A stretch of 64,000 nucleotides of DNA from Escherichia coli (GCF_003334315.1 NZ_QOWR01000006.1); one strand, 5' to 3'. Positions 44,901 to 50,900 are shown, numbered from the stretch's first letter. Numbers are program-made.

Positions 44901-47900
44901 GCGGCGGTGGATTTGGTTTAGTTACCGCCTGTGCTGCCGGTGGGCTTGGCGCGGCAATGGTTCTGGAGGCGGAATAATGGAAATGGCATCAGCGTTTACT
45001 CTTAATGTTCGTCTGGACAACATTGCTATCATCACCATCGACGTACCGGATGAGAAAATGAATACCCTGAAGGCGGAATTTGCCTCGCAGGTGCGCGCCA
45101 TTATTAAGCAACTCCGTGAAAACAAAGAGTTGCGCGGCGTGGTGTTTATCTCCGCGAAACCGGACAATTTTATCGCCGGAGCAGACATCAACATGATCGG
45201 CAACTGCAAAACGGCGCAAGAAGCGGAAGCTCTGGCGCGGCAGGGCCAACAGTTGATGGCGGAGATTCATGCTTTGCCCATTCCGGTTATCGCGGCTATT
45301 CATGGCGCTTGCCTGGGTGGTGGGCTGGAGTTGGCGCTGGCGTGCCACGGTCGCGTTTGTACTGACGATCCTAAAACGGTGCTCGGTTTGCCTGAAGTAC
45401 AACTTGGATTGTTACCCGGTTCAGGCGGCACCCAGCGTTTACCGCGTCTGATAGGCGTCAGTACAGCATTAGAGATGATTCTCACCGGAAAACAACTTCG
45501 GGCGAAACAGGCATTAAAGCTGGGGCTGGTGGATGACGTTGTTCCGCACTCCATTTTGCTGGAAGCCGCTGTTGAGCTGGCGAAGAAGGATCGCCCATCT
45601 TCCCGCCCTCTACCTGTACGCGAGCGTATTCTGGCGGGGCCGTTAGGTCGTGCGCTGCTGTTCAAAATGGTCGGCAAGAAAACAGAACACAAAACTCAAG
45701 GCAATTATCCGGCGACAGAACGCATCCTGGAGGTTGTTGAAACGGGATTAGCGCAGGGCACCAGCAGCGGCTATGACGCTGAAGCTCGCGCCTTTGGCGA
45801 ACTGGCGATGACGCCGCAATCGCAGGCTCTGCGTAGTATCTTTTTTGCCAGTACGGACGTGAAGAAAGATCCCGGTAGTGATGCACCGCCTGCGCCATTA
45901 AACAGCGTGGGAATTTTAGGTGGTGGCTTGATGGGCGGCGGTATTGCTTATGTCACTGCTTGTAAAGCGGGGCTTCCGGTCAGAATTAAAGATATCAACC
46001 CGCAGGGCATAAATCATGCGCTGAAGTACAGTTGGGATCAGCTGGAGGGCAAAGTTCGCCGTCGTCATCTCAAAGCCAGCGAACGTGACAAACAGCTGGC
46101 ATTAATCTCCGGAACGACGGACTATCGCGGCTTTGCCCATCGCGATCTGATTATTGAAGCGGTGTTTGAAAATCTCGAATTAAAACAACAGATGGTGACG
46201 GAAGTGGAGCAAAATTGCGCCGCTCATACCATCTTTGCTTCGAATACGTCATCTCTACCGATTGGTGATATCGCCGCTCACGCCGCGCGACCTGAGCAAG
46301 TTATTGGCCTGCATTTCTTCAGTCCGGTGGAAAAAATGCCGCTGGTGGAGATTATTCCTCATGCGGGGACATCGGCGCAAACCATCGCTACCACAGTAAA
46401 ACTGGCGAAAAAACAGGGTAAAACGCCAATTGTCGTGCGTGACAAAGCCGGTTTTTACGTCAATCGCATCTTAGCGCCTTACATTAATGAAGCTATCCGC
46501 ATGTTGACCCAAGGTGAACGGGTAGAGCACATTGATGCCGCGCTAGTGAAATTTGGTTTTCCGGTAGGCCCAATCCAACTTTTGGATGAGGTAGGAATCG
46601 ACACCGGGACTAAAATTATTCCTGTACTGGAAGCCGCTTATGGAGAACGTTTTAGCGCGCCTGCAAATGTTGTTTCTTCAATTTTGAACGACGATCGCAA
46701 AGGCAGAAAAAATGGCCGGGGTTTCTATCTTTATGGTCAGAAAGGGCGTAAAAGCAAAAAACAGGTCGATCCCGCCATTTACCCGCTGATTGGCACACAA
46801 GGGCAGGGGCGAATCTCCGCACCGCAGGTTGCTGAACGGTGTGTGATGTTGATGCTGAATGAAGCAGTACGTTGTGTTGATGAGCAGGTTATCCGTAGCG
46901 TGCGTGACGGGGATATTGGCGCGGTATTTGGCATTGGTTTTCCGCCATTTCTCGGTGGACCGTTCCGCTATATCGATTCTCTCGGCGCGGGCGAAGTGGT
47001 TGCAATAATGCAACGACTTGCCACGCAGTATGGTTCCCGTTTTACCCCTTGCGAGCGTTTGGTCGAGATGGGCGCGCGTGGGGAAAGTTTTTGGAAAACA
47101 ACTGCAACTGACCTGCAATAAGAAGGTCAAAGCTATATGAATCCGCGCTGAATGGCGGAGTGTTGGTCAAAATGTAAACGCATATTGACTATACTTACGC
47201 CATTGAGGTAAAAAACAGCGTTTCATTCGGTGAATGGATAAGGCACAATGCCGGCCACCGTTTTCTTTCTCTGGTTTCAGATGAAAGAAAACGGGCGAAT
47301 CTGGTTAACAAAAGCGGTGCAATATGCAAGTTTTTATCATGCGTCACGGCGACGCAGCCCTCGATGCCGCCAGTGATTCCGTTCGTCCTCTGACCACTAA
47401 TGGTTGTGACGAATCTCGCCTGATGGCGAACTGGCTGAAAGGTCAAAAAGTGGAAATCGAACGCGTTCTGGTGAGCCCGTTCCTGCGAGCCGAGCAAACA
47501 CTGGAAGAAGTAGGGGATTGTCTGAACCTGCCTTCCAGTGCAGAAGTTCTGCCGGAGTTAACGCCCTGCGGCGATGTTGGTCTGGTCAGTGCCTATTTAC
47601 AGGCGTTGACCAATGAAGGTGTTGCTTCGGTACTGGTGATCTCTCACTTACCGTTAGTCGGGTATCTGGTTGCCGAGTTATGTCCGGGCGAAACGCCGCC
47701 TATGTTTACCACCTCGGCCATTGCCAGCGTAACGCTTGATGAAAGCGGAAACGGCACATTCAACTGGCAGATGAGCCCGTGTAATCTGAAGATGGCAAAA
47801 GCTATCTGATGAGTTCCAAATTATGCCCAATGAGGTAGATTCATTGGGCATAATTGCTCATCAGGCAGCGGATATCTGTCAACCTCACTACTATCGAAGA

Positions 47901-50900
47901 CTCTCCCCATCTATAAATAAAACACCTTTAACTTTCATTCGGAAAGTATTCTTCTGCGCGTATCTTGATTTTGCCCAAAGTTACATGTTGAAATGAATAA
48001 TGTCTGTTTGACACTCATTATCATTTATTAATACAGATAATGGAGAAAATAGAGTTGAATAATCAGGCAGGACGTAATTGAAACTTGATTAAATTCTGGC
48101 TATAGTGTTTATATATTATATCGACAAAAGCGGGTTAATGCCAATCGCATTATATGTTCATTGTTTGTTTTTTAAGCTATTGGCATTCATTGTTGATATG
48201 CTTCCTGTTTTTTCTAAATATATATTTCGTGTTTTTTTAGAAGATCCTTAAGATAATCTTTCCCCTATCAATATATTAATTAAATCTACATTTACTCATT
48301 AGTAAAATTAAATTGAATCAGGGGAGTGAAAACATCACTATTCGACCCCACACCAACGAATACATTTTTTACGACCTGTTTTTTTGGATCGCATGCCGTA
48401 TTCAATGGCTGGGTATAAACATTGGCTATTGACTGAATCAATGTATTGCAATGTTTATATTTTAATTATTTATAGTTTAAGGACAAATAATGAGTAAGTT
48501 TGTTAAAACAGCTATTGCTGCGGCAATGGTGATGGGCGCGTTCACCTCTACGGCAACAATCGCTGCGGGTAACAACGGTACTGCACGTTTTTACGGCACC
48601 ATTGAAGACTCAGTGTGTTCTATCGTTCCGGACGATCACAAACTGGAAGTTGATATGGGTGATATCGGTGCCGAAAAACTGAAAAATAACGGCACCACCA
48701 CGCCGAAAAATTTCCAGATTCGCCTGCAAGATTGCGTATTTGATACTCAGGAAACAATGACCACTACCTTTACTGGTACCGTTTCTTCTGCAAATAGCGG
48801 CAATTATTACACCATTTTCAATACCGATACCGGTGCGGCATTTAACAATGTTAGCCTGGCGATCGGTGACTCTCTGGGTACCTCTTACAAAAGCGGCATG
48901 GGTATTGACCAGAAAATCGTGAAAGATACTGCCACTAATAAAGGCAAAGCGAAGCAGACTCTGAACTTTAAAGCCTGGCTGGTCGGCGCAGCTGATGCGC
49001 CAGATCTGGGTAATTTCGAAGCAAATACCACCTTCCAGATTACTTACCTGTAAGGCATACCCCCATAGCGACACTGCTATGGGGTATTTAAATGGATTTT
49101 GACCGAACAAGAATAAAAACGGATAAAAACGTGTATGCCTGACCATTCTCTTTTTCGATTACGGATTCTTCCGTGGTGCATTGCGCTGGCAATGTCAGGG
49201 AGTTATAGCAGTGTCTGGGCTGAAGACGACATTCAGTTTGATTCCCGTTTTCTGGAATTAAAAGGCGACACAAAAATTGATCTGAAGCGTTTTTCCAGCC
49301 AGGGGTATGTTGAGCCCGGAAAATACAATTTACAGGTTCAACTAAATAAACAGCCATTGGCGGAAGAGTACGATATTTACTGGTATGCTGGTGAAGATGA
49401 CGTTAGCAAAAGCTATGCTTGTCTGACACCGGAACTGGTGGCGCAGTTTGGTTTAAAAGAAGACGTGGCGAAAAATCTGCAATGGAGCCACGATGGTAAA
49501 TGCCTGAAGCCCGGTCAACTGGAAGGCATGGAAATTAAGGCTGATTTAAGCCAGTCCGCATTAGTCATTTCACTACCGCAGGCTTACCTCGAATATACCT
49601 GGCCCGACTGGGATCCACCTTCTCGTTGGGATGATGGCATCTCCGGGATCATTGCGGACTACAGCATCACTGCGCAAACACGACACGAAGAAAATGGCGG
49701 CGATGACAGTAACGAGATCAGCGGCAACGGGACGGTCGGGGTTAACCTGGGGCCATGGCGTATGCGCGCTGACTGGCAGACCAACTATCAACATACGCGC
49801 AGTAATGATGATGACGATGAATTTGGCGGCGATGACACACAAAAAAAATGGGAGTGGAGTCGCTATTATGCCTGGCGGGCGTTACCGTCATTAAAAGCCA
49901 AACTGGCGCTGGGCGAAGATTACCTCAATTCCGATATTTTCGACGGTTTTAATTATGTTGGTGGCAGTGTCAGCACTGACGATCAAATGTTGCCTCCCAA
50001 CCTGCGCGGCTACGCGCCAGACATTTCCGGCGTGGCACACACCACAGCAAAAGTGACCGTCAGCCAGATGGGGCGTGTGATTTACGAAACGCAGGTTCCG
50101 GCTGGACCGTTTCGTATTCAGGATCTTGGTGATTCCGTCTCCGGTACGTTGCATATTCGCATTGAAGAACAGAACGGCCAGGTGCAGGAATATGACATCA
50201 GCACCGCCTCGATGCCATACCTCACTCGCCCAGGCCAGGTTCGCTATAAGATCATGATGGGACGTCCGCAAGAGTGGGGCCACCATGTCGAGGGGGGATT
50301 TTTCTCTGGTGCTGAAGCCTCCTGGGGCATCGCTAACGGCTGGTCGTTATATGGCGGTGCGCTGGGTGATGAAAACTATCAGTCTGCGGCGCTGGGCGTC
50401 GGTCGCGATTTGTCTACCTTCGGCGCGGTCGCGTTTGATGTTACTCATTCGCATACCAAACTGGATAAAGACACCGCTTATGGCAAAGGTTCGCTGGACG
50501 GTAACTCCTTCCGTGTGAGTTATTCCAAAGACTTTGACCAGCTCAACAGCCGCGTCACTTTCGCTGGATATCGCTTCTCGGAAGAGAACTTTATGACCAT
50601 GAGCGAGTATCTGGATGCCAGTGACAGCGAAATGGTCCGTACGGGCAACGACAAAGAGATGTACACCGCCACTTATAACCAGAACTTCCGCGATGCGGGT
50701 GTTTCGGTTTATCTCAACTATACCCGCCATACCTACTGGGATCGTGAGGAGCAGACAAACTACAACATCATGCTCTCCCACTATTTCAATATGGGCAGCA
50801 TTCGTAATATGAGCGTTTCCCTGACTGGCTACCGCTACGAGTATGACAACCGGGCGGATAAGGGCATGTACATTTCGCTCAGTATGCCGTGGGGCGACAA

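Follow-up and report, generated by a model that had tools for sequence, protein, structure and literature searches.

The present analysis concerns the intergenic spacer between sixA and yfcV in a stretch of 64,000 nucleotides of Escherichia coli DNA (GCF_003334315.1, NZ_QOWR01000006.1), hereafter the window, whose positions are used throughout. The sixA open reading frame (ORF), identical in sequence to sixA, occupies positions 47324-47809 on the + strand, and yfcV, which opens the chaperone-usher fimbrial operon yfcV-U-S-R-Q-P-O, occupies 48490-49053, also on the + strand, which leaves a spacer of exactly 680 bp (47810-48489, no strand assigned). The genes around it are fadJ, sixA, yfcV and yfcU, sixA being read in the same direction as yfcV. 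The spacer is 100% identical to that of E. coli K-12 MG1655, the window being the reverse complement of the reference (MG1655 version 3 coordinate = 2504136 minus window position), and the curated NC_000913.3 record carries no annotation inside it. As the first-pass annotation of this DNA had already stated, it is long and very AT-rich: the sixA-yfcV gap is the largest within the 18.7-kb annotated neighbourhood, and its guanine-cytosine (GC) content is 31.9% (26-32% in segments of 200 nt), compared with 48.8% for the window. Yfc belongs to the small number of chaperone-usher fimbriae that almost every E. coli possesses, and yfcV is a marker in wide use for uropathogenic E. coli, while we know of no natural condition that induces the fimbria. 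The evidence described below indicates that the interval is, in all likelihood, an H-NS-bound, Rho-policed regulatory spacer of the cryptic core-genome yfc operon, in which a 37-codon ORF and an inverted repeat pointed out in the first-pass annotation are incidental.

The control region itself has already been published, as an H-NS-bound promoter island, as peaks of genomic SELEX (systematic evolution of ligands by exponential enrichment) and as Rho termination regions. In their survey of promoter islands, Panyukov and Ozoline (2013; PMC3661553) listed the spacer as island 2453647_489, yfcV(-)/sixA(-), which would lie at about 48024-48512 of the window, the shift of about 1977 bp between reference versions being our own estimate. 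The island is flagged 'K' in Table 1 of that work, that is, bound by H-NS in the data sets of Kahramanoglou (MG1655) and Oshima (W3110). Moreover, genomic SELEX with the RpoD holoenzyme gave a peak in the spacer, marked HNS, and the sequence TTGAAA-17-TATAGT was assigned as the constitutive RpoD promoter of yfcV (Shimada 2014; PMC3946193), while a peak obtained with the RpoS holoenzyme also falls within the spacer (PMC5493296). Thus, both the occupancy by H-NS and the in vitro binding of the sigma-70 and sigma-S holoenzymes are matters of published record. Furthermore, Yfc has been classified as a core-associated, cryptic chaperone-usher fimbria by Wurpel et al. (PMC3559732), who, in the passage of their paper that cites Korea 2010, describe many fimbriae of this type as cryptic and repressed by H-NS. 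The view of the spacer as an H-NS-silenced fimbrial promoter, put forward from the sequence in the first-pass annotation, is therefore borne out by a published H-NS-bound island, by a SELEX promoter marked HNS and by the description of Yfc as belonging to the cryptic, H-NS-repressed kind. Concerning other regulators, overexpression of BolA or TosR leads to higher yfcV transcript levels, and a literature search for control of yfcV by LeuO, RcsB, Lrp or CRP gave nothing specific.

The spacer may be described as three consecutive parts, the first of which would be the end of the sixA transcript, where a very stable stem-loop without a U-tract would be followed by a C-rich tract and by Rho termination at about 47938. 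The stem-loop (47801-47869, + strand, 69 nt), which spans the sixA stop codon, has perfect inner arms of 15 nt (47819-47833 / 47841-47855) plus a 13-nt outer stem and, when its folding is compared with that of shuffled sequences, reaches -40.6 kcal/mol (z = -8.5), a stability attained by none of the 200 shuffles. The EDL933 allele retains the hairpin by means of compensatory changes (CCCAATG/CATTGGG to CCCGATG/CATCGGG). Following it, the U-tract is missing in the K-12-type and B1-type alleles, while a T-run of the sort seen at intrinsic terminators is present in EDL933 and E2348/69; a scan of the spacer for intrinsic terminators returned none. The C-rich, G-poor tract beyond (47860-47960, + strand) resembles a Rho utilization (rut) site in base composition, since segments inside 47860-47977, directly before 47938, hold 27-29% C and 8-10% G, with C/G ratios of 2.6-3.8. 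As a separate observation, the type of terminator, Rho-dependent or intrinsic, appears to differ among alleles of one and the same gene, sixA.

The termination data come from Adams et al., two of whose 1078 Rho termination regions (Supplementary file 2) fall in the spacer, their coordinate frame having been confirmed by means of their sixA entries and the NC_000913.3 start of sixA. The stronger region, 2456198(-), corresponds to window position 47938 in the direction of yfcV (Rho score 9.29, p = 1.1e-41), with 136 reads upstream and 73 downstream in untreated cells and 148 upstream and 738 downstream in the presence of bicyclomycin. The weaker, 2455977(+), corresponds to position 48159 on the - strand of the window (score 3.88, p = 4e-6). 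Bicyclomycin-sensitive transcription in the spacer is hence a published result. Since the U-tract is absent and the rut-like tract lies at the strong Rho region, transcription of sixA would be ended by Rho in the K-12-type allele, and we infer that Rho at this point also insulates yfcV from read-through. In addition, with bicyclomycin the downstream reads outnumber the upstream ones, so that part of the transcription must start within the spacer itself and would normally be aborted by Rho.

The second part would comprise about 500 bp of AT-rich DNA able to bind both H-NS and RNA polymerase, with promoter-like sites that overlap on both strands. Our own scan recovered the distal sigma-70 promoter-like sequence TTGAAA-17-TATAGT at 48078-48106 (+ strand, 10 of 12 consensus positions matched), the one assigned by Shimada 2014; counted from its predicted start, near 48113, the leader would measure about 377 nt. 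Both the TTG of its -35 element and its TATAGT have been preserved in the alleles of K-12, the B1 type and E2348/69, and not in EDL933 or ATCC 25922. On the opposite strand, and directed toward sixA, lies TTGGCA-18-TATAAT (48115-48144, - strand), a putative promoter, which matches the consensus at 11 of 12 positions and is the best match in the 19 kb scanned. The two sites overlap and are placed face to face, and the presence of a Rho region at 48159 on the strand of this best sigma-70-like match suggests abortive antisense transcription. Altogether, four of the 26 promoter-like matches found in the 19 kb, the two best included, fall within the 680 bp. In the same scan a second cluster of matches was seen at about 39900-41300, which by our own coordinate conversion coincides with the listed island 2461920_303, yfdF/mlaA; the distance from it to the Rho termination regions of Adams et al. 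at MG1655 positions 2463820(-) and 2462709(+) ranges between some hundreds of bp and about 1.2 kb.

The composition of the spacer is preserved across the species in spite of a sequence that diverges. By megablast, sixA was found in all 5426 complete E. coli genomes, and the spacer was matched at 99% identity or more in 1231 of them, at 90-95% in 1818 and at 80-90% in 430, with about 1900 giving no match; in the 80-90% class, an EDL933-type example aligns only over the last ~160 bp of the spacer. Representatives of each allele class (K-12, B1-type, EDL933, E2348/69, O102:H6 and ATCC 25922) were aligned, and in every E. coli allele examined the spacer measures 566-687 bp with 26-32% GC. E. whittamii and a metagenomic relative (SixA 90% identical, spacer of about 515 bp) also keep a long AT-rich spacer. 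The length and AT-richness are thus real and non-random, being kept in all allele classes and in related species. Several further observations were made on these loci. A sharp boundary of recombination or divergence lies directly past the sixA hairpin, the spacer and yfcV existing in several deeply diverged allele classes. Homologues of yfcV with 82% protein identity occur in Pseudocitrobacter vendiensis (locus L018) and in a metagenomic locus (L135), with the same ribosome-binding region and proximal blocks, and in L135 the synteny with sixA is retained, with a spacer of about 515 bp and 23-34% GC. Finally, an O102:H6-type sixA-yfcV spacer was found on a 2.2-kb contig (JAIJJM010000567.1) of a metagenome-assembled genome labelled Collinsella sp., almost certainly as a result of binning contamination.

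These elements can be combined in a simple mechanism. It is established that H-NS on AT-rich DNA limits initiation and that Rho removes untranslated transcripts, a picture which is extended here to the present locus. H-NS would nucleate on the AT-rich DNA and spread, RNA polymerase would then be excluded or trapped, and any untranslated transcript that still got away, on whichever strand, would be terminated by Rho; the joint action of H-NS silencing and Rho termination is proposed to keep the yfc operon off under laboratory conditions. In this scheme the choice of promoter in vivo, the geometry of silencing and the roles of the conserved blocks and of the proximal hairpin are those that we infer.

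Nevertheless, a number of points weigh against this interpretation. The derepression of yfc in an hns mutant is taken by way of a citing paper (PMC3559732) from Korea 2010, which reportedly describes it for cryptic chaperone-usher operons. The number of promoter-like sites in the spacer is no higher than in shuffled sequences of the same composition (4 found, 3.9 expected), so that the 'island' property, as judged by a simple scan, follows from AT-richness. Similarly, matches to the high-affinity H-NS motif (TCGATAAATT, up to two mismatches allowed) are only modestly enriched, with 3 in the 680 bp as against about 1 expected from the window-wide density, and this roughly threefold excess is trivially accounted for by the AT-richness. 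No experimentally mapped transcription start was found in the spacer, and the Cappable-seq supplement holds no coordinate within its range in the numbering of either reference version; the distal promoter is consequently a sequence assignment beneath an in vitro binding peak. Moreover, initiation inside the spacer and read-through are inseparable in the bicyclomycin data, which must be partly due to initiation.

The third part would be a proximal segment of about 145 bp carrying a stem-loop and the ribosome-binding site. Conservation of sequence among alleles and genera is confined to this last stretch of the spacer, in which the conserved units are CACACCAA.GAATA (48349-48362), TTCAATGGCT..TA.AA (48400-48418) and the stretch between 48454 and the ATG, the proximal blocks being present also upstream of the yfcV homologue of Pseudocitrobacter vendiensis. 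As it is the sole part of the spacer under sequence constraint, specific control most likely acts there. The first block, CACACCAACGAATA (48349-48362, no strand assigned), occurs in all E. coli classes, in E. whittamii, in two Escherichia spp. and in Pseudocitrobacter vendiensis; judging from its position in a C-rich, G-poor stretch, it may serve as a binding site for a protein or belong to a rut site. Within it, AAGAATAT may resemble an RcsB half-site. In the second block, GTATTCAATGGCTGGGTATAA (48398-48418, no strand assigned), the core TTCAATGGCT...TA.AA is invariant or nearly so. The end of the leader (48454-48489, + strand) is likewise nearly invariant and contains the Shine-Dalgarno sequence AAGGA (48479-48483), ahead of the yfcV ATG at 48490. 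When the conserved 145 bp were looked over by eye, no canonical sigma-70 or sigma-54 promoter was convincing: TTGACT (48429-48434) is not accompanied by a -10 element at a spacing of 16-18, and TGGC at 48406 lacks the GC that a sigma-54 promoter would show at -12.

The leader stem-loop (48411-48462, + strand) has perfect 11-nt arms, TATAAACATTG (48414-48424) and CAATGTTTATA (48449-48459), is followed by a U/A-rich tract and encloses in its loop a match to the IHF core consensus (AATCAATGTATTG, 48436-48448), read by eye. For its comparison 120 further metagenomic loci were added, giving 55 distinct proximal variants. It could be argued that a long structured 5' leader, in which this stem-loop and its U/A-rich tail serve as an attenuator or as an element of RNA stability or translation control, operates alongside H-NS silencing, an alternative that is considered rather unlikely. 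It draws on the prediction that almost all allele classes form a hairpin at this position, with differing inner stems (an E2348/69-type variant, L035, folds otherwise), and on an RNAalifold consensus in which pairing survives at four pairs altered on both sides, AU to GC and AU to CG among them. Switches among G-C, G-U and A-U within classes also suit pairing in RNA better than in DNA, the putative 388-nt leader folds at z = -3.25, and the surrounding 145 bp are the only part conserved out to Pseudocitrobacter. However, only about five to six allele lineages that are independent of one another underlie this evidence. About half of the ATCC 25922-class loci carry a mismatch at one position of the stem, and the z values of the hairpin, which range, for most variants of the K-12 and ATCC 25922 types, from -2.4 to -5.1 and stand at -1.8 for the K-12-type hairpin of the window in a context of 96 nt, are near zero for the E2348/69 type. 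The base of the stem (TATAAA / TTTATA) is conserved as sequence, so that a role at the level of DNA is equally possible. The stem-loop is not a canonical intrinsic terminator either, as the scan picked up no terminator-like site and its stem counts only two G-C pairs. Furthermore, the z-score of the leader may merely mirror a T-rich-then-A-rich layout of the sequence, and the leader has no match in Rfam, whose covariance models were scanned permissively against 47000-49200 on both strands with no match at an E-value of 1 or less.

Beyond the hairpin alone, the whole proximal ~145 bp, with the blocks CACACCAA.GAATA and TTCAATGGCT and a stem-loop that goes on pairing although its inner stem varies among allele classes, might constitute a cis-regulatory module of the yfc leader not described before, shared by E. 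coli and Pseudocitrobacter and acting either as an RNA attenuator or stability element or as a platform for a regulator and IHF; this proposal is put forward as a decidedly speculative one, for which the odds appear poor. The proximal stem-loop with its compensatory changes is the one possibly new element at this locus, and the evidence for it is only suggestive.

Turning to the features noted earlier in the AT-rich part, the 37-codon ORF (MPIALYVH..., 48138-48251, + strand) does translate as written in the first-pass annotation, and the weak ribosome-binding site remarked on there is only a weak GGG upstream. That it codes for a small hydrophobic protein of the membrane, or for a leader peptide, and controls the downstream yfc genes by being translated is nevertheless very improbable. 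It is true that the ORF exists, is hydrophobic and would start about 25 nt past the predicted start of the distal promoter, that some automatic annotations, in E. coli only, call it a hypothetical or putative membrane protein, and that a 33-codon version of it persists in the common B1-type allele. However, an ATG-initiated ORF of at least 37 codons is present in 80% of the shuffles, in which the mean longest ORF has 50 codons, and the spacer itself holds a longer one, of 57 codons, which merely overlaps the sixA hairpin. Compared with K-12, the B1-type version stops prematurely, after those 33 codons, and differs by 8 nonsynonymous and 3 synonymous changes. The start codon or frame is lost in four deeper alleles with intact operons, since the ATG is missing there in EDL933, E2348/69 and O102:H6 and the ATCC 25922 version is stopped once five codons have been read, and no ORF of at least 30 codons in the spacer is common to all alleles. 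Moreover, the Shine-Dalgarno sequence is weak, the protein clusters of the ORF are confined to E. coli, and curated NC_000913.3 does not annotate it. Among the entries listed in the ribosome-profiling small-ORF supplement of Stringer et al., none has a coordinate in the range of the ORF, which counts as weak evidence. The ORF is thus not conserved and most likely non-coding, and the suggestion that it might be a gene does not hold up: it is an incidental product of T-rich sequence in the K-12-type allele.

The same applies to the inverted repeat (48137-48187, + strand), whose 8-nt arms do exist, ATGCCAAT at 48138-48145 and its complement ATTGGCAT at 48179-48186, the right arm ending slightly to the left of the position first given for it (about 48188). 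The repeat can be extended to arms of 12 nt, AATGCCAATCGC / GCTATTGGCATT, complementary at 11 of 12 positions (48137-48148 / 48176-48187), and its left arm coincides with the -35 hexamer of the - strand site at 48115-48144. Of the dinucleotide-preserving shuffles, 71% contain one or more perfect 8-mer inverted repeats whose loop does not exceed 60 nt, and 17% a 12-mer repeat with at most one mismatch; as RNA the repeat of the spacer folds at -13.6 kcal/mol (z = -1.4). The B1-type allele has changes in both arms, and in the deeper alleles neither can be recognised. The repeat is therefore specific to the K-12 type and consistent with chance and, like the ORF, an incidental product of T-rich sequence in that allele.

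Many fimbrial operons are phase-variable, and a perfect pair of 10-bp inverted repeats (47911-47920 / 48466-48475) brackets the promoter region while two GATC sites lie in the spacer; even so, that the spacer is a phase-variation switch, whether through inversion of a promoter element or through Dam/Lrp methylation as in pap, is very improbable. In 16% of the shuffles the count of long-range 10-mer inverted repeats attains the observed two, and the arms are not conserved, the left one being gone in the deeper alleles. When the inverted junction was searched for with a synthetic query (at least 80% coverage, for the chosen arms and in assembled consensus sequences), it was found in none of the 3525 matching genomes. 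Neither a recombinase gene nor a papI/papB-like gene adjoins the spacer, its flanking genes being sixA and yfcV, in agreement with the earlier statement that no recombinase gene flanks the region. Regarding methylation, which had been left as a possible form of phase variation together with a suggested search for regulatory GATC sites, the two sites equal the approximately 2.0 expected from base composition, are 144 bp apart rather than about 102 bp, and only one of them is shared: that at 48243-48246 (no strand assigned) belongs to the K-12-type allele alone, and that at 48387-48390 (no strand assigned) is present in most alleles and lost in O102:H6 and ATCC 25922. Phase variation of any kind, the methylation-based one included, thus finds no footing here.

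The reading of the spacer as an H-NS-silenced and Rho-policed control region can be placed alongside known systems. With the promoter islands of Panyukov and Ozoline (2013) it shares the very locus, the AT-richness, the published binding of RNA polymerase and, in two ChIP data sets, of H-NS, and the scarcity of productive transcription, along with promoter-like sites as numerous as its composition predicts; there is no difference as regards the island itself, the ORF and the inverted repeat lying inside it and not forming part of the published description. Both the yfc and the bgl operons are cryptic with an AT-rich, H-NS-bound upstream region, and, like bgl, which is silenced by H-NS, policed by Rho and activated by the insertion sequences IS1 and IS5, the yfc spacer combines published Rho-sensitive transcription with natural IS1 insertions in several strains. 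In contrast to bgl, nothing indicates that IS1 activates yfc, and no BglG-type antiterminator is found at yfc. As in fimS, the regulatory region precedes the gene of the major fimbrial subunit, and the fimE/fimA spacer is also a listed promoter island, but the yfc spacer adjoins no recombinase gene, is not bracketed by conserved inverted repeats and was seen inverted in 0 of 3525 genomes. Finally, the pap Dam/Lrp/PapI switch is likewise an AT-rich fimbrial regulatory region with GATC sites, whereas at yfc their number is at chance level, their spacing is 144 bp, one is allele-specific and papI/papB homologues are absent.

As regards the insertions, which are independent of one another and strike an AT-rich spacer, IS1 was observed in natural strains at no fewer than three positions, 48034-48043, 48122-48130 and 48463-48471 (loci L007, L008, L019 and L006), the site located 19-27 bp ahead of the yfcV ATG being occupied in at least six genomes, and in one strain an IS1-associated deletion extends from 47848 into yfcU. 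By analogy, these insertions may resemble the activation or inactivation by insertion sequences of H-NS-silenced operons such as bgl. With respect to the operon downstream, yfcU (49135-51780) is here an intact ORF of 881 codons, potentially encoding a functional usher as far as its sequence goes, while the annotation of MG1655 gives yfcU as a pseudogene that has a stop inside it; the window hence stems from a K-12-like strain other than MG1655.

No new principle emerges from this locus. The practical value of the analysis is that the region upstream of yfcV can be regarded as a published platform of silencing by H-NS and Rho, and not as a phase switch or a small-protein gene, which makes the last ~145 bp and anti-silencing factors, rather than the ORF, the subjects for future work. 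If the proximal ~145 bp did form a regulatory module, it would set the timing of expression of an otherwise silent core fimbria.

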